Shown: positions 22,641 through 31,072 of the stretch, piece after piece
Numbering within the stretch: position 1 is the stretch's first letter
Layout of the letters: each line of letters opens with the position of its first letter
NCBI GenBank assembly: GCA_049903315.1
Contig: JBNGBT010000011.1
Span: forward strand, 30,914-94,913
Direction: 5' to 3'
Length of the DNA stretch: 64,000 bases
Source of the DNA: Candidatus Cloacimonadota bacterium
GTDB lineage: Bacteria; Cloacimonadota; Cloacimonadia; JGIOTU-2
Program-made: the position numbers and the translations under genes
The notes under the pieces: model-generated
The model's input: only the letters and a program-made list of their open reading frames with translations
Told to the model about the DNA's origin: nothing
The model's database searches: none

Positions 22641-25052
22641 TCACTCTACCGTAAAATACCTACCCACTATCTTGAGCACATTTTTCCAGCCCTTGAGCAT
22701 CATTTGTACGCTTGTTCCATACAATGCTTCGACAATACCTCTGACCCCATTATAGATTTTCTTACTATAGGGATGCCACCAGATATTTTTACGTGCAAAA
22801 GGTAGGATATCATTTACAATAACCTGTGGCTGTGTCATTTCATCAAAACCGATCTTTCCATGCGTGCGTCCGATACCTGATTCCTTGAATCCGCCCCAAG
22901 GCGTTTCTGCAAGCCCGTGGCTCATCAGGTGGTCATTTATCGTCACTGCACCTGCCTTGATCTTTCTGGCTATATGAATCGCCTGTACTTTGTTCTTCGA
23001 CCAGACAGATCCTGTGAGACCGAGATTGGAATCATTCGCGAGCTCAACAGCATCTTCCATATTTTTAACTTTCATCACTGCAACGACGGGACCGAAGCTT
23101 TCTTCAAGCATCACTTTCATTGTATGATCGACATCTGTGAGTACAGTTGCAGGATAAAAATTCTTGTATGATTTTGGAATTGCTGATTGAGCAAAAATCT
23201 TTGCTCCTTTTTCAAGTGCATCACGAACGTGTTCCTTGACTGTTTCGACCTGACTCTGCTTGGTCATGGAACCCATATCAACATTATAATCAGTTTCATA
23301 TCCCACACGCAGGTTATCAACCTTGATTTTCAATTTGTGTAAGAATTCATCATACACTTTTTCATGTACATAAATCCTCTCGACACCTCCGCATGACTGA
23401 CCCGCATTGGAGAGACCAGCCCATACTGCGCCGGTCGCAGCCCTGTAGATATCAGCGTCAGAACACACAAGCATTGCATCGTTGCCACCGAGTTCCAGAA
23501 CAAGAGGTGTAAGCGTCTCGGCAGCTTGTGCCATAAGCTTTTTTCCGATCGGAACGGAACCAGTGAAAAAAAGTTTATCTACTCCATTATTAAGGAACGC
23601 ATCTCCAGCTTCAGCCCCCGAAATGTTCACATAATTGAACACATTCTCAGGGAATCCTGCAGCACGAAAGCATTCTTCGAGTTTACGTCCGACCATCTGG
23701 GTATTGGATGCCACTTTGAGAACAACAGTATTTCCCGCAAGCAGCGCCATCACCACTTCTGAAAATGGAATGCCAAATGGATAATTCCACGGTGAGATGA
23801 TTCCGATGACACCAAAAGGAGTCCTATACATTGCACTCTGTTTGTTTGAAAGCATGATGTTGCCAAACCAGATGCTTTTTCTTTTCAAAAAATTCCGTGC
23901 ATGACTGCAATAATATGACAGAGCCATTGCAGCAGGAACAAGTTCTGTAGAAAGCGCATCGATCCTTGTTTTTCCATTGTCGCGCGAGATGACTTCCGCA
24001 AGCTCATCAATATGATCGATCATATATGCACGTACTCTTTTCAGGTGATCTATCTTTCTTCCAATAGGAAGTCTTGCCCATCCCTCTTGTGCGATTTTTG
24101 CTTTTTGCATGATATCTTTTATTTCGTTGGGTGTATTGAGGGTTGAGTATCCTATTATTTCTCCAGTTGTCGGATTGTACGAAGTTGTATAATTTCCACT
24201 TGGTGGTGAGAGTGTATTTCTATTCATGTGGTCGTCCTTCTTTTCTATTCTTCCGATAAATTCATCCATCGAGGCATTAATTCCAAGTATATTTGAGACA
24301 AGATCGAATATTTTAACAGGCAGTAATCGCAGAAGCCAAACTGTGTAGACAAGCAAGGGCTTCACCACTCTGCGCTTATCATATTTTATCGCATTGAAAA
24401 TTTTGCGTGCGACTTTATCTTCCTTGAGGATTGGAAGCAGAAATGAAAATCGTGATTTCACCCCCTTGAACATTCCTGTATCGATATAATACGGACATAC
24501 AACAGTAGTTTTAATATCCAGTCCAGCTTTTCGGAACTCCTGCCTGAGTGATTCATCCATGCCGAAATTAGCAAATTTAGTCGTAGAATAGACCGAAAGA
24601 TTTGCAACACCTATAATACCTGCAGCAGATGCAATTGTGACAATATGACCGCTGTTTGCCTGTCTCATTTCAGGAAGAAATGCTTTTATTATCCAAAGGT
24701 GCGCCAGTAAGTTTATCTTAATAGTTTTCTGAATATCGTCATCGGAATATTCCCAGTAGGGTTTGCCAAAGACTACTCCTGCATTATTCACGAGTATATC
24801 GATCTTGCCTATTTCCTTTTTTACTTTCTGGGCAATGTCGTCGATCTGTTTCTTATCAGAAACATCGCAATAATAACCAGTCGCAGTATATCCTTTATTT
24901 TTTATTGCGCTGGTCACTTCATCAAGATGCTTCTTATTGATATCCCAGATAACGACGTGTGCTCCTTCGATAGCCATCAAGTACGCAAGCTTTTTCCCTA
25001 TGCCGGAAGCTCCTCCTGTGATCAAAACATTTCTGTCTGCAATAATGCTCAT
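22641..25052 (-). CDS. SDR dehydrogenase fused to aldehyde dehydrogenase
   Basis: SDR motifs TGGASGIG, NNAG, YSTTK; ALDH motifs PWNYP, FTGS, ELGGND, GQSC, EESFGP. Confidence 0.88.
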   Translation of the reverse strand: MSIIADRNVLITGGASGIGKKLAYLMAIEGAHVVIWDINKKHLDEVTSAIKNKGYTATGYYCDVSDKKQIDDIAQKVKKEIGKIDILVNNAGVVFGKPYWEYSDDDIQKTIKINLLAHLWIIKAFLPEMRQANSGHIVTIASAAGIIGVANLSVYSTTKFANFGMDESLRQEFRKAGLDIKTTVVCPYYIDTGMFKGVKSRFSFLLPILKEDKVARKIFNAIKYDKRRVVKPLLVYTVWLLRLLPVKIFDLVSNILGINASMDEFIGRIEKKDDHMNRNTLSPPSGNYTTSYNPTTGEIIGYSTLNTPNEIKDIMQKAKIAQEGWARLPIGRKIDHLKRVRAYMIDHIDELAEVISRDNGKTRIDALSTELVPAAMALSYYCSHARNFLKRKSIWFGNIMLSNKQSAMYRTPFGVIGIISPWNYPFGIPFSEVVMALLAGNTVVLKVASNTQMVGRKLEECFRAAGFPENVFNYVNISGAEAGDAFLNNGVDKLFFTGSVPIGKKLMAQAAETLTPLVLELGGNDAMLVCSDADIYRAATGAVWAGLSNAGQSCGGVERIYVHEKVYDEFLHKLKIKVDNLRVGYETDYNVDMGSMTKQSQVETVKEHVRDALEKGAKIFAQSAIPKSYKNFYPATVLTDVDHTMKVMLEESFGPVVAVMKVKNMEDAVELANDSNLGLTGSVWSKNKVQAIHIARKIKAGAVTINDHLMSHGLAETPWGGFKESGIGRTHGKIGFDEMTQPQVIVNDILPFARKNIWWHPYSKKIYNGVRGIVEALYGTSVQMMLKGWKNVLKIVGRYFTVE

Positions 25053-25351: not shown

Positions 25352-26212
25352 ATGACTTATAAAAAAAAGAGATTTGGTCCTGAGGAAATTTCCAAACTCA
25401 TAATCAATTTATTACAAAATAGCAAATTTATAATTACTTTATTGTACTATTTATTAATAATATCAATATCAATTATTCTTTTAATTTTTTTCATTTTTTT
25501 AGACACAAATATTGATATTAGTAAAGCAATGATAATTCCATTTATCACAGCAATTACTGCAATAATTATCTTAATTTATACAAAGGAAACTTATGAATTA
25601 AGAGTAATCGAAAGTAAAAAATATGAAAGAGAATTAAGACCAATTCTTGAGTATAAAGTCGAGCAAAGAAATGATGAAAATCCTTTTGAACTGACCCTTC
25701 TTATTCATAATAAATCGAATGAGCTAATATCATGTCTTGTAAAACTTGAATATTTTATTTTGTTAGACAATAATTCTTTTACTATTCATAAGAAAAATCC
25801 TTGGAAGAGATTTCAGGGTAATAGAATTTGGAATATTCAATATAAACAGACGATTGAGTCAAAATTTGAAATTACTAAAGCATTCAAATGGTATAATTCT
25901 TGGCTTGATTCCTATTATCTTTACAAATCTTCAGAAGACTATTCTTTATACATGAAATCAATCATGGAATTATCCAAATTTTATAAACCTGATTACAATA
26001 TTGAGGAAATGAGATCTTTCAAATTACTATTTAAATTTCATCTTGTTAGTTTCACTAATTCTACAAATGTTATTCCTTATATACCAATTACATATATTAT
26101 AAATATGCTTCTTGTTAATCACAATTTGGAATATTGTTTTACTAGTGAAACTCCTGCATATAAATATGATAAAATTCCTAAGTGGGCTGAAAAAATAATA
26201 AATAATTTGTGA
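25352..26212 (+). CDS. AT-rich hypothetical membrane protein
   Basis: 286-aa ORF, two N-terminal hydrophobic segments, AAGGA RBS. Confidence 0.65.
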   Translation: MTYKKKRFGPEEISKLIINLLQNSKFIITLLYYLLIISISIILLIFFIFLDTNIDISKAMIIPFITAITAIIILIYTKETYELRVIESKKYERELRPILEYKVEQRNDENPFELTLLIHNKSNELISCLVKLEYFILLDNNSFTIHKKNPWKRFQGNRIWNIQYKQTIESKFEITKAFKWYNSWLDSYYLYKSSEDYSLYMKSIMELSKFYKPDYNIEEMRSFKLLFKFHLVSFTNSTNVIPYIPITYIINMLLVNHNLEYCFTSETPAYKYDKIPKWAEKIINNL

Positions 26213-26221
26213 GGATTTCTT

Positions 26222-29143
26222 ATGAAAAAAATAACATTTTTAGTTTTTATTTTACTCCTTCCCATTCTCCTATTCTCAGATAATGCCAAGCCTTATCCCG
26301 ATTATCAGAAAATAATAGAAAACACGAATCTAAATTTAAGGCAGCAGGCAGATTTCTATGAACAATTCCGAGAAATACTTGAGGACTCGAAGAATATGGA
26401 TAACTATGATGTCACCTACTATAAAATAGACATCGATATAGATATTGATGCTGAGTTCATAGAATCTGAAATAACTATGCAGGCAAGGATCTGCGAGGAT
26501 CAAATTGAAGAGATTGAGTTGAATTTCACGAATAATTTAACCGTCACAGATATTCAACAGAATACCACTTCTCTCATCTTCGTTCATTCGGACGATATCA
26601 TAACTATCCAACTCGATGACACATATAATACTGATGACTTGATCGAGATTACAGTATCGTATGAAGGTTATCCTGACACAAAACTCAGCGACGGCATGAA
26701 GTTTGAATCCCACAATAGTACTCCGAATGTCTTTACAATGGTGTCTCCAAAGGGTGCCAGAAAGTGGTGGGCATGTAAAGATACACCTGCAGATAAACCG
26801 GATTCTCTCGATATCTGGATCACCTATCCTGAAGAATATGTGTGCGCATCCAACGGATTACTCATCGAGCAAATCAATAATGGAGACGATACAGTTACAG
26901 ACAAATGGCACGAATCCTATCCTGTAGCAACATATCTCACTTCACTTGCGATCTCAAATTATCAAATTTACTCGCAGACGTACACGTCCGGTGATCAGAC
27001 AATGCCGATCGACCACTATCTTTTTCCAGAATTGTATACTACTTGTGAAGATCTTTTTAGCATAACGCCTGATATGATAACATTTTTTGCATCTGTGTAT
27101 GGTGAATATCCCTTTATTGAGGAGAAATATGGACATGCTTTATGTGCAAACCTGAGCTGTCTTGCAATGGAGCATCAAACCTGCACCTCTTTTCGAAGTG
27201 GATATGTCGGAGATCCGGGGGCAGAATCGACCATTGCACATGAGCTTTCACATCAATGGGCTGGGGACTGCCTTTCTATTGGCTCGTGGGCGCATGTGTG
27301 GCTGAAAGAGGGTTTTGCACGCTATAGTGAAGCGTTATGGGCAGAGAATTTGTACGGATCACAGGGTTTGCATGATTTCATGAATGCACTCGATACAGGC
27401 ACAAATCTCGATCCGTGCTTATACCGCGATCCTGATGGCTCTGCATCGCAAATTTTTGATATTGTGATATATTCGAAAGGAGCTTGGACAATGCATATGC
27501 TTCGCGGCGTATTGGGAGATACTGATTACTTTTCAACCGTGTATAACCTCATGCAGGATCCGCAATTCAAATATGGAAATTTCCTTACTGATGACCTGAG
27601 AGACATCGCTGAAAACACAAGCGGTATGGAACTCGACTGGTTCTTTAATGAGTGGTTTTATAATGAAGGACGACCCTATTATTTCTATACAACGTATACA
27701 TCTGAGATGGAAGATTCTTTGATCATTACTACTCAATCCGAAGGAACTTTCGGGCAAAATTTTGCTATGCAATTGCCAGTATGCATCAATAATATAGACT
27801 ATAGTATTTTTGCTGATTCCGGTTTCTGTTATAATAAACTTCCTCTAACCGGCACACTCGATGATCTTGTGTTCGATCCGGATAACTGGGTATTGGATGG
27901 CGGATATAATGAGAAAATTCCTGTTCTTGACGAGATAGAAGCAACTCGCGGGGCAATATTACTTGTATGGAATGAATTCTTTGATCCACAAATCGAAGGA
28001 TATAATATTTACAGAAAGCAAGTTGGTGAAGAATATATAAAAATCAATGATGAGACTATTACTGATATTTCTTATTTTGATGAAAATGTAATTACAGGAG
28101 TTGAATACTATTACAAAATCGCAGCTGTACTTGAAAGTGACACACAATATATCAGTAAATTTTCTAATGAAGTACATGGCACATCAATTGATTTCTCACT
28201 CGATCAGGGAATACTTGTGATAGATGAGACTGATCAGATCAGTCCGGCGTTTCCGACAAATGCAGAGGTTGATTCTTTCTACCAGTATTTGCTTCAGGGC
28301 TATGAATACACGGAGTGGGATGTCGATGATCAGGGGAGTCTCCCCCCACTTTCTGAGATGGCAAAATACAGTAGCATTGTCTGGCATTCTGATGAGATGT
28401 TCACCTCTCAATTTATTGGTTCGGTATATCCTTTGAAAAGCTACTTTATTGCAGGAGGAAATATGTTCGTATCCGGTTGGAAACATCTTCCGGGACCTTC
28501 CGATCTTTTTGAACACTATCTCCACACTTCTTTGCCCGAATACAATTCAGACGATGATTTCACTGGTGCGTATGGTCTAGAAGGGCTACCCTATCTCGAT
28601 GTGATAGAATCCAAAGTCCCAATTGCCATGTGGGGCGATAATCTCAGCTATATTTATAAACTTTTCCCCGAAAATGATGCAGATACGATCTTCACTTATG
28701 ACTCTTCAATTGATGCTCCGGGATGGGAGGGTATGCCCTGCGCTCTGCGATTTAATGGTGAATACAATCTTTATCTTCTTGGTTTTCCATTGTATTATAT
28801 GGATGAATCCGGCGCACGGCATCTTATGCAGCAAGCGATGCAAGATTTTGGAGAGGTGTATGCTGTAGATCCTCACCCTCAAGATGAAATATCGTTACGA
28901 TTATTTCCAAATCCAGTAAAAGAAAATTGTATTATTTCATACTCGTTGAATCAAACGGAGATGGTTAAGCTGGGAGTGTTTAACGTAAGAGGACAACTCG
29001 TGGAAACAGTAGTATATGAGATTCAAAATGTTGGAAATCATAATCTAAATTGGCATGTTGAAAAGTTTGCATCCGGGATTTATTTATGTAAATTAGTTAT
29101 TGGTGATGCTGTTTATAATAAGAAAGTATTGATAATTAGATAA
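26222..29143 (+). CDS. Secreted M1-family aminopeptidase with FN3-like domain and T9SS/FlgD-like C-terminal domain
   Basis: Signal peptide, LAMEH, HELSH-x18-E (WLKEG), YSKGA, C-terminal FPNP...SGIYLCKL. Confidence 0.9.
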   Translation: MKKITFLVFILLLPILLFSDNAKPYPDYQKIIENTNLNLRQQADFYEQFREILEDSKNMDNYDVTYYKIDIDIDIDAEFIESEITMQARICEDQIEEIELNFTNNLTVTDIQQNTTSLIFVHSDDIITIQLDDTYNTDDLIEITVSYEGYPDTKLSDGMKFESHNSTPNVFTMVSPKGARKWWACKDTPADKPDSLDIWITYPEEYVCASNGLLIEQINNGDDTVTDKWHESYPVATYLTSLAISNYQIYSQTYTSGDQTMPIDHYLFPELYTTCEDLFSITPDMITFFASVYGEYPFIEEKYGHALCANLSCLAMEHQTCTSFRSGYVGDPGAESTIAHELSHQWAGDCLSIGSWAHVWLKEGFARYSEALWAENLYGSQGLHDFMNALDTGTNLDPCLYRDPDGSASQIFDIVIYSKGAWTMHMLRGVLGDTDYFSTVYNLMQDPQFKYGNFLTDDLRDIAENTSGMELDWFFNEWFYNEGRPYYFYTTYTSEMEDSLIITTQSEGTFGQNFAMQLPVCINNIDYSIFADSGFCYNKLPLTGTLDDLVFDPDNWVLDGGYNEKIPVLDEIEATRGAILLVWNEFFDPQIEGYNIYRKQVGEEYIKINDETITDISYFDENVITGVEYYYKIAAVLESDTQYISKFSNEVHGTSIDFSLDQGILVIDETDQISPAFPTNAEVDSFYQYLLQGYEYTEWDVDDQGSLPPLSEMAKYSSIVWHSDEMFTSQFIGSVYPLKSYFIAGGNMFVSGWKHLPGPSDLFEHYLHTSLPEYNSDDDFTGAYGLEGLPYLDVIESKVPIAMWGDNLSYIYKLFPENDADTIFTYDSSIDAPGWEGMPCALRFNGEYNLYLLGFPLYYMDESGARHLMQQAMQDFGEVYAVDPHPQDEISLRLFPNPVKENCIISYSLNQTEMVKLGVFNVRGQLVETVVYEIQNVGNHNLNWHVEKFASGIYLCKLVIGDAVYNKKVLIIR

Positions 29144-29152
29144 TATAAATTT

Positions 29153-29235
29153 TCTCACCATCCTTAAAAAAAAATGGCTCCACAGGAGGGATTTGATCCG
29201 CCAGCTGGCGGATAACAGACACCTGCTCTACCGCT
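29153..29235 (-). pseudogene. Truncated tRNA-Asn copy plus trailer, with 16-bp palindrome replacement
   Basis: Matches 29481-29563 except that 17 nt are replaced by TCCGCCAGCTGGCGGA (29197-29212); also one substitution and one extra A in the A-run. Lacks the tRNA 5' end. Confidence 0.9.
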
Positions 29236-29479
29236 ACGAAAAAATTTCTTCCCGAATGAATTTTCTTCCCTGATAAGATTTCAATTCCCTTTCTCTTTTC
29301 ATTGCTTCTGATTTTGTTTCAAATTCTTCATGATAGACTAAATCCCAAGGAATATATTTCGCAGTCCAGCCCTGGATGCCTTGATTGTGAAAATGTAATC
29401 TTCTTTCTAAGTTGTTGGTATAACCAATATAGATCTTATCATATACGGGAGAATATAAAACATAAGTATAATATTTCAA
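29234..29479 (-). CDS. Small stand-alone GIY-YIG nuclease
   Basis: 81 aa: YTYVLYS...IYIGYTNNLERRL..HN..W...EAMKRERELK. Confidence 0.92.
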   Translation of the reverse strand: MKYYTYVLYSPVYDKIYIGYTNNLERRLHFHNQGIQGWTAKYIPWDLVYHEEFETKSEAMKRERELKSYQGRKFIREEIFS

Positions 29480-29501
29480 ATCTCACCATCCTTAAAAAAA
29501 A

Positions 29502-29576
29502 TGGCTCCACAGGAGGGATTTGAACCCCCGACAAAGTGGTTAACAGCCACCTGCTCTACCGCTGAGCTACTGTGGA
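29502..29576 (-). tRNA. tRNA-Asn(GTT), intact, CCA encoded
   Basis: Cloverleaf TCCACAG/CTGTGGA, anticodon arm GGTGG-CTGTTAA-CCACT, TTCAAAT T-loop. Confidence 0.96.
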
Positions 29577-29696
29577 ACGTAGTGGAGACTTACATCCAGT
29601 GACCGCTCCTTAGTGTCAAGAAAATCAAGACCTATTTATATATAAAAACTAATTTAACCTTTAATAAAATTTCTTATCCCTTACAAACCTAACACA

Positions 29697-29773
29697 CTCC
29701 ACAGGAGGGATTTGAACCCCGTCCGCCAGCTGGCGGATAACAGCCACCTGCTCTATCGCTGAGCTACTGTGGA
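29697..29773 (-). pseudogene. Defective tRNA-Asn copy with the same 16-bp palindrome
   Basis: Palindrome at 29722-29737, D-loop GG>GA, no CCA. Upstream 47 bp also duplicated (6 mismatches versus 29577-29623). Confidence 0.9.
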
Positions 29774-29827
29774 ACGTAGTGGAGACTTACATCTGATGAC
29801 TGCTCATTCGTGTCAAGAAATATGACA

Positions 29828-31072
29828 CTATGCAATCATCTGATCCTGGTCTTTTTTATCTTTTGAGTTTATAAATTGAAAAATTGGAGCTCCGTTATCA
29901 ATAATAACATCACGAGTTATAATACACTTGTTGACATCCTTCATATCAGGAAGATTATACATGATGTCCTTCATAACATTTTCCATTATAGCTCTTAATC
30001 CCCGGGCTCCGGATTGCCGTTTTGTTGCAATTTCTGCAATCGCATCAAGTGCTTCAACCTCAAATTCAAGGTCAACATCTTCTAGATCGAATAATGCCTG
30101 ATATTGCTTTATTAGAGCATTCTTTGGTTCTGTAAGTATTCTCACCAATGCATCTTTATCAAGTTCTGAAAGTGAGGTGTTCACAGGAAGTCTTCCTATC
30201 AATTCAGGAACCAGCCCATATTTTAACAAATCCTGGGGCTGCACCTTACTGAGGATTTCACTCCTTCTGTCTTCATAAAGACCAAGAAGCTCGGAACCAA
30301 AGCCAATCGTCTTTTTATTTATTCTTCTCTCTATTATCTTCTCAAGTTCATTGAAAGCCCCGCCAACAATGAACAAAATATTCTTCGTGTTGATCTCAAT
30401 AAACTCCTGATGCGGATGCTTTCTTCCACCTTTTGGTGGCACATTTACTTTTTCACCTTCGAGAAGTTTCAAGAGTGCCTGCTGCACACCTTCTCCGGAT
30501 ACATCTCGTGTAATAGAAGGAGTTTCAGATTTACGAGCTATCTTATCTATCTCATCCAAATATATAATACCTCGCTCAGTTTTTTCAATATCATAATCTG
30601 CAGCTTGAAGCAAACGGACGAGAATATTCTCTACATCCTCTCCAACATAACCGGCTTCTGTAAGGGTGGTTGCATCTGAAATCGCAAAGGGAACTTTAAG
30701 AAAACGAGCAAGTGTCTGCGCAATAAGAGTTTTCCCTGTGCCTGTCGGTCCGATCATGATAATATTACTTTTCTCGAGTTCAACATCTTTGACGTAGCGC
30801 TGTTTAAAAATTCTCTTATAATGATTGTACACAGCTACAGAAATAGTTTTCTTGGCATTTTCCTGTCCAATCACATATTCATCGAGATATTCTTTGATCT
30901 CTCGCGGAGTTGGCAGTTCAAAATTATCATCAACTTTTTTCTCACGTTCCTTCTCTAGGATCGTGTTGCATATGGTAATACATGTATCACAGATGTTGCC
31001 GTCAACACCACGCACGAGTTTGGTAACCTGATCACGGGTTTTTCCGCAAAAGGAACATTTTTGTTCTTCCAT
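29828..31072 (-). CDS. clpX: Clp protease ATPase ClpX
   Basis: CSFC..CDTC zinc domain, [17 protein letters not shown] loop. Confidence 0.98.

Follow-up and report, generated by a model that had tools for sequence, protein, structure and literature searches.

The window, by which is meant the whole stretch of 64,000 nucleotides of Candidatus Cloacimonadota DNA that was analysed, harbours three copies of a tRNA-Asn gene at 29153-29820, all on the minus strand. The middle copy, tRNA-Asn(GTT) at 29502-29576, is intact and takes a normal cloverleaf fold. Its 5' flank (29577-29623, minus strand) contains a TTGACA at 29619-29614 that is likely a -35 box; a full promoter was not called by a scan of 29000-29900, which returned six promoter-like sites against 2.9 expected, none of them at the tRNA, and no terminators. 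Upstream lies a pseudo-tRNA-Asn (29696-29774, minus strand) with a near-perfect 5' half and without CCA, in which the palindrome TCCGCCAGCTGGCGGA (type A; 29722-29737) takes the place of positions 38-47, a segment that corresponds to about 29539-29530 in the intact gene. This copy is preceded by a duplicate of the 5' flank (29775-29820, minus strand; TTGACA at 29816-29811), and over 86 nt of flank and 5' half it is 91% identical to the intact locus (29735-29820 against 29538-29623).

On its other side, the intact tRNA is followed by a T-run and a leader with a likely ribosome-binding site (29481-29501, minus strand, the site at 29491-29482; repeated at 29153-29174) and then by an 81-aa ORF (29234-29479, minus strand) for a single-domain, Slx1-like GIY-YIG nuclease. 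The start codon of the ORF is a TTG at a distance of 1 nt from the repeat, and the stop codon, TAG, shares 2 nt with the downstream pseudo-tRNA. The latter is composed of a left arm running from the D-loop to position 37 (29213-29235, minus strand), a second type-A palindrome (29197-29212) and a right arm running from the T-loop through CCA to trailer and leader (29153-29196, minus strand). Here the palindrome replaces 17 nt, with 7 nt of the T arm lost in addition to the usual 10, whilst the right arm is a direct repeat of 29481-29523, exact save for one extra A in an A-run. The unique DNA between the lower two copies amounts to 245 bp, with the nuclease ORF alone between the copies. The palindrome, which is predicted to fold as a DNA hairpin, is matched twice in the window against 0.00 expected.

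The neighbours are housekeeping genes, with tig, clpP and clpX upstream and an M1 peptidase gene downstream, and integrase or transposase Pfam families were absent from the 24 other ORFs scanned (10194-49227). An earlier note on this DNA had described the three co-oriented copies with an intact middle one, the repeated TTGACA-bearing flank, the direct repeat, the placing of the start and stop codons and the lack of a nearby integrase or transposase; coordinates and cloverleaf agree with all of this. Elsewhere in the window, an 803-aa ORF (22641-25052, minus strand) encodes a short-chain dehydrogenase fused to an aldehyde dehydrogenase, and a 286-aa ORF directly before the peptidase gene (25352-26212, plus strand) has no Pfam or NCBIfam match.

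Misassembly, which the same note had named as a threat to its own reading, is rejected, and an artefact is scarcely credible as the source of this layout. Short repeats do break contigs at the clpX-tRNA-Asn locus in relatives and in two of four runs, but the copies differ in sequence, the layout is common to relatives, including one with a single-contig genome, and every junction is spanned or tiled. Contigs from two of the four runs (three studies) span 28700-29589 with zero differences, and both may be source runs; two runs of another study tile every junction by overlapping contigs, with no alternative joint listed. Contig depth, which does not equal copy number, is about 21 over the ORF unit against 26-33 in the flanks (two runs), and the lower value could mean that a sub-population is without the unit.

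The nuclease gene, its paralogues and its relatives

The 81-aa product matches Pfam PF01541 (GIY-YIG; E=1.8e-17) as its one domain, and NCBIfam assigns it no family. Residues Y6, Y17, G19, R27, H31 and E63 are invariant across 29 homologues, and these tyrosine, glycine, arginine, histidine and glutamate residues are the usual GIY-YIG catalytic positions. The predicted structure (pLDDT 95) is a bare GIY-YIG domain, for which Foldseek returned Slx1 (TM 0.70), UvrC (0.54) and I-TevI (0.44); the prokaryotic Slx1-like and UPF0213 proteins (PDB 1ywl, 1zg2) are the closest in both sequence and fold. An extra DNA-binding domain for a long double-stranded site was found neither in the 81 aa, nor by Pfam, nor in the model. 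Ratios of dN/dS from 0.04 to 0.11, from the four pairs with unsaturated dS among six compared, indicate that the gene is under purifying selection. Its start codon, TTG here, is ATG in most close relatives. The section of PMC1564403 on Slx1-like proteins describes methyltransferase links and predicted DNA repair, and mentions no tRNA-gene context.

Five small GIY-YIG genes are present in the genome from which the window derives. The two closest paralogues have the same layout, at tRNA-Asp (C44:128958-129450), where there are two pseudo-copies, and at tRNA-Pro (C55:56270-56690), and the downstream tRNA fragments of both units have one arm replaced by a type-B palindrome, TCCCGA-N-TCGGGA. Both clades thereby occur in one genome, each ORF beside a palindrome of its own type. 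A fourth paralogue lies behind the 3' end of tmRNA (C55:229690-230080), and the fifth (C11:265119) is Ssn-like, 39% identical and flanked by tagged hairpin repeats. The type-A palindrome itself occurs at 15 sites in this genome, a control giving 0. When dispersed sites were compared with the orthologous sites of relatives, the palindrome was clearly absent from one, and another had other letters; one dispersed site replaced an imperfect hairpin and another resembles a net insertion. Palindromes were also seen nested in other repeats (C44:147325, C11:38653, C22:310979), including one of Ssn type and one with a CCCCTCT-like start. In tRNA-Ser(CGA) (L204:234-325 on C9, L240-L244) the variable arm is similar to the type-A palindrome in the genus and is itself a type-B palindrome in G017, a likeness that would reflect either a tolerated replacement or a source of palindromes.

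Twenty clpX loci from the family and order were compared, of which 16 were informative, three at contig ends and one without a tRNA in 487 nt being excluded. The nuclease gene stands behind tRNA-Asn in 11 of the 16, and an intact tRNA target is retained beside it in these filled alleles. Two of the five empty alleles keep a decayed upstream pseudo-copy and three have a single clean tRNA, the form that the earlier note had suggested should be sought in relatives. The leader bearing the ribosome-binding site is absent from all five nuclease-free alleles; it therefore belongs to the element and not to the native tRNA trailer, in which that note had mistakenly placed the site. The three-copy layout is common to two relatives (G008 and G003), G017 has two tandem units at tRNA-Asn, and in G007 (L200, C147:12000-16685) the duplicated tRNA copies enclose 4 kb of DNA that includes the M1 peptidase gene. 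As the nuclease gene is also found in a genome of another family (G021), it is old at this locus and no fresh insertion. The G021 gene is 79% identical to that of the window and its clpX 68%; horizontal transfer of the nuclease gene is hinted at by such sequence comparison, a vertical clade not being rejected (p-AU 0.355).

Several further features were seen at these loci. An ORF pair (109-113 aa and 180-184 aa; no Pfam match at 1e-6) follows the nuclease gene in L200, L202 and L031, the last of which lies on a contig that is labelled Woesearchaeota, has a clpX 90% identical to that of the window and is probably mis-binned. The tRNA-Asn array of G099 is interrupted by an IS21-like element (Mu-transposase C-terminal and IstB domains; L203:2896-5102). 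In L038, upstream of 1500, tRNA-Asn appears by eye to be interrupted in its anticodon loop by a structured insert, possibly a group I intron.

The wider pool of homologues drew on named genomes for 79 loci (from the best 80 of 309 confirmed), on a search of the phylum for 30 and on weaker controls for 60, leaving 158 loci once 11 with identical ORFs had been dropped. Among the best matches listed, the closest named records are mostly Cloacimonadota. The type-A set holds 92 loci (bit score of at least 84, plus three partial hits), 17 of them without upstream context. In this set an intact same-strand tRNA lies within 700 nt upstream at 65 of the remaining 75 loci, and within 100 nt at 48, compared with 21 of 2144 ordinary ORFs (1%); the palindrome lies within 220 nt downstream of the ORF at 73 of the 87 loci with room for it. 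The upstream tRNAs are 41 Met, 20 Asn, 3 Val and 1 Arg. At all of the other 10 loci a tRNA-derived piece was found by eye beside the ORF, in the form of displaced 3' fragments, a split array, or an arrangement in the opposite order, in which an intact tRNA-Lys lies downstream. At 15 of the 92 loci there is more than one ORF hit, and 4 of the 92 best hits have internal stops. In phage, plasmid and viral collections there were no close relatives of the nuclease, only weak or partial matches.

The homologues substantiate much of what the earlier note had proposed: an integrase-free unit of nuclease and duplicated tRNA pieces, with one tRNA kept intact, does recur, homologues are enriched beside tRNAs and the palindrome, and the duplication it envisaged is seen as tandem amplification. 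Its choice of target was right for tRNA-Asn and too narrow, since several tRNAs with a shared short hairpin are involved and not Asn alone. Its suggestion that the unit borrows tRNA transcription fits the subclade of the window, in which no terminator-like hairpin separates tRNA and ORF and co-transcription is therefore plausible, but not the 36 of 48 homologues in which such a hairpin is present, implying low read-through or another promoter. In RNA runs the word share was only 5-7%.

In a quick tree, 79 of whose 153 inner branches are open, the type-A proteins form a clade of 88 rows (support 82) and the Asp/type-B proteins one of 23 rows (95), with further groups for tmRNA/Ala (97), for proteins without a tRNA (90) and for Ssn-like proteins (98). 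Palindrome type and context track protein clade in this tree, nearly all rows of the tmRNA/Ala clade having neither palindrome type, and there have been several switches of target (Met, Asn, Arg, Val). The members of that separate clade (the fourth paralogue above, with L157, L160-L170, L175, L176, L180, L184, L186, L188, L190, L193 and L194) follow tmRNA or tRNA-Ala(GGC) at a distance of 118-308 nt, and a different repeat begins directly after CCA. Another GIY-YIG clade (L177, L181, L182, L187, L191, L192, L196, L199) appears by eye to be inserted within unrelated genes, with short inverted ends and a repeat of host sequence to either side, in the likeness of a tiny insertion element. At L155 and L156 (G099:C1:1142684, 2788290) a GIY-YIG ORF with inverted repeats lies, again by eye, within an apparent 23S rRNA gene, like an intervening sequence.

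Nuclease and palindrome were also compared across 201 genomes of the phylum, kin among which are not independent. A full-length hit to the type-A profile (E≤1e-30) was found in 21, all of which carry at least four palindromes, and in none of the 157 genomes with three or fewer. Among the 44 palindrome-rich genomes, 23 are without a full-length hit, four of these having fragments (draft genomes); three drafts (G001, G005, G011) contain 53-67 palindromes and no type-A hit at E≤1e-22. Of 50 metagenome loci with the palindrome, one has a GIY-YIG hit within 400-500 nt, and of 56 viral loci none. Being mostly away from the nuclease, the palindrome is therefore a general dispersed repeat; the earlier note had hardly mentioned it, and whilst it is the signature of the unit, a tRNA-specific palindrome is ruled out by its dispersal throughout genomes.

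Replacement of native hairpins by the palindrome

Junctions were mapped where the flanks match the resident tRNA at 8 or more of 10 positions on the left and 10 or more of 12 on the right, others being uncounted. Of the 103 obtained, one of which is an artefact, 73 begin directly after position 37 (Met and Asn tRNAs), and 67 replace exactly 10 nt, positions 38-47. Other tRNAs lose other segments: positions 39-47 in Arg, 8 nt of the T arm in Asp, and the entire anticodon arm in both Pro and Ala. The segments lost are themselves short inverted repeats: the three terminal positions are all paired in 35 of 36 distinct Met tRNAs and in 5 of 8 for Asn, compared with 64 of 3473 background 10-mers (1.8%), figures to be read with two cautions, that these same data gave rise to the hairpin rule and that kin are not independent. 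The replaced sites of Asp, Pro, Ala and Arg are likewise paired, and the tRNA-Asn site of the window pairs at two of the three terminal positions. Four of the 47 tRNAs called in the genome of the window bear the hairpin motif, namely Asn, one Met, Thr(TGT) and Arg(CCT). A partly independent check on the rule comes from G099, the sole genome of 11 in its family with nuclease or palindromes. In this single-contig genome the eight palindromes are distributed over three loci and are all within pseudo-copies of tRNAs that bear the motif. Five of the eight are at two loci far from the genes, where the 1 kb read gave no nuclease hit, and one of these two loci is a different tRNA with a CAT anticodon.

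The layout that recurs consists of the tRNA, its trailer, the ORF, a short copy of the tRNA 5' arm, the palindrome, and the tRNA 3' half with trailer, and it may be repeated in tandem; ORF-less arrays are found at other tRNAs bearing the same motif. Downstream copies match the resident tRNA at 97% to the right of the palindrome against 81% to the left (52 versus 4 of 64), and upstream copies mostly have the mirror pattern. In 23 of 31 cases the left arm begins ahead of the stop codon or no more than 5 nt from it; second palindromes are seen in T-arms, and the length of the right arm is estimated too low where they interrupt it. A C stands directly after the palindrome in 106 of 133 cases, and the stem covaries, pair 5/12 being C-G in 73, G-C in 22 and T-A in 5 of 110. 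Preservation of the anticodon stem by the palindrome was also considered as a general rule and rejected, as this holds for Asn by chance and fails for Met.

Possible modes of spread

On balance, these features probably represent a selfish pair at tRNA genes, in which a minimal Slx1-like GIY-YIG nuclease and its cognate 16-bp hairpin work in the manner of Ssn and REP-RAYT; we infer that the nuclease cuts DNA and that the unit spreads. The protein would nick hairpins in transiently single-stranded DNA, both its own palindrome and the ACC-N3/4-GGT hairpin of certain tRNA genes, and host repair would join or copy the palindrome in where the native hairpin had stood; host enzymes are needed for the joining step, since hydrolytic nucleases are unable to rejoin DNA. 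Replacement by the palindrome would kill the tRNA, so that only events that also duplicate the locus would survive. A nick at the right edge of the palindrome would be repaired against the identical tRNA 3' half, and such repair would expand, contract and homogenise the array, carrying the ORF along, whilst the palindrome would also spread alone as a non-autonomous element. Together, nicking, replacement, duplication-dependent survival and recombination through the 3' half would yield the arrays, the asymmetry of the arms and the ORF-less copies. A bolder proposal, which we put forward tentatively and hold to be rather more doubtful than probable, is that this would constitute a new mode of mobility, a 'hairpin swap', by which an 81-aa hydrolytic nuclease and host repair exchange a 16-bp hairpin for a native one with almost no homology. 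Palindrome and tRNA site would be particular to each clade, a self-amplifying home would be provided by the tRNA locus, and the palindrome would be a very small non-autonomous mobile element. Working tRNA-Ser genes in the family may also have had their variable arm rewritten in this way.

Free-standing homing of the SegB kind, with a double-strand break in empty tRNA alleles, gene conversion and the palindrome as a resistance mark, is an unlikely alternative to this selfish pair. SegB of the T-even phages is a GIY-YIG protein encoded among tRNA genes that cuts a T-arm motif and homes (PMC2330249), and tandem tRNA-segB amplification is described through microhomology between the tRNA 5' end and the gene 3' end (PMC13096335), which resembles the left arm here; in both systems tRNA and nuclease are amplified in tandem via short homology at the 3' end of the gene. 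The targets considered here also share a sequence motif, and there are empty (5) and filled (11) alleles of one locus. However, filled alleles retain an intact target beside the gene, the 81-aa protein is a bare catalytic domain much nearer in fold to Slx1 than to I-TevI, a fixed foreign palindrome with genome-wide copies is unexplained, and the nuclease was not found on phages. In those accounts SegB is encoded by phages, makes double-strand cuts at a 27-bp site and is not accompanied by a palindrome, in contrast to a chromosomal Slx1-like gene whose pseudo-tRNAs are marked by a fixed palindrome. No more probable is a domesticated host function, in which the nuclease would guard the integration sites at tRNAs or resolve DNA branches and hairpins where tRNA genes are strongly transcribed, with the pseudo-copies as by-products or decoys. 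The strong purifying selection is equally expected of an active selfish gene, and although long residence at the clpX-tRNA-Asn locus and the Slx1-like fold are in keeping with such a role, as is the position of several homologues behind displaced tRNA 3' fragments, so that those tRNAs serve as integration sites, the gene is patchy (21 of 201 phylum genomes) and has left broken copies, tandem ORF arrays and several target switches.

Islands integrated at tRNA genes usually consist of an intact tRNA, cargo and a 3' tRNA fragment. The locus could be seen as a minimal satellite of this kind, its downstream copy an attR-like fragment and its ORF cargo moved in trans by a tRNA-targeting integrase, and it does have an intact tRNA restored upstream and a 3' fragment downstream whose right arm is identical to the resident tRNA. 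We give this reading little credence: there is homology on both sides of the palindrome, which replaces an internal segment, the unique DNA is very short, the 24 nearby ORFs include no integrase, and tandem and upstream mirror copies, ORF-less arrays and second palindromes in T-arms all depart from the island pattern. Equally remote is the view that the palindrome is an independent short repeat, moved by some other enzyme and causing the duplications through stalled replication, with the nuclease gene as a hitchhiker. Palindrome-rich genomes without a detected type-A nuclease, and the distance of most palindromes from any GIY-YIG gene, speak for it. Against this, the nuclease never occurs without palindromes (0 of 157), palindrome type tracks protein clade even within one genome, and the ORF stop abuts the pseudo-copy in those 23 of 31 cases.

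Relation to known nuclease-hairpin systems

The selfish pair favoured here has a close parallel in Ssn (SsnA-NTS/SRM, cd10448), likewise a small single-domain GIY-YIG gene with a flanking hairpin repeat that is also dispersed genome-wide. SsnA cuts single-stranded DNA beside its own hairpin, with the C after the palindrome mattering most for binding, as reported in the main text of PMC11893778, in which the words 'tRNA' and 'tandem' do not occur. Unlike in Ssn, the palindrome here is a 16-mer without the tagged flanks of the SRM, embedded in tRNA copies by replacement, and the Ssn-like paralogue of the same genome, taken as a stand-in for SsnA, groups apart (support 98, quick tree). The published SRM pattern matches none of the 92 loci, nor does it match the Ssn-like locus of this genome, which served as a positive control. 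REP-RAYT and IS200/IS605 elements use a Y1 (HUH) transposase, able to rejoin DNA. The present system resembles REP/BIME-RAYT and IS200/IS605 in having a nuclease gene beside short palindromes that have multiplied genome-wide and nest in other repeats (PMC11893778 and PMC3733652), but differs in its hydrolytic GIY-YIG enzyme in place of a Y1 (HUH) transposase and in lacking a GTAG or CGTC tag. Neither 'GIY' nor the first six letters of the palindrome occur in the accessible text of the REP survey (PMC3733652). By the features tested, the system is not a member of the Ssn, SegB-type or RAYT families.

The arrangement is real and widespread, with unusually precise junctions, and is apparently undescribed in print: no account of the tRNA-nuclease-palindrome layout was found in the openly accessible literature, covered mostly by title and abstract opening. 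It provides a candidate substrate and role for a large group of unannotated 80-aa 'GIY-YIG family' genes, of which 2908 clusters (50% identity) reach E≤1e-10, the loci considered here being a subset. It also accounts for a common short palindrome and for the pseudo-tRNA calls and broken contigs met with at the tRNA genes of Bacteroidota and Cloacimonadota, and extends nuclease-hairpin pairs beyond Ssn by at least two further specificities. If it is true that precise replacement depends on the nuclease, this would be a case of transposase-free editing by one of the smallest site-directed nucleases.
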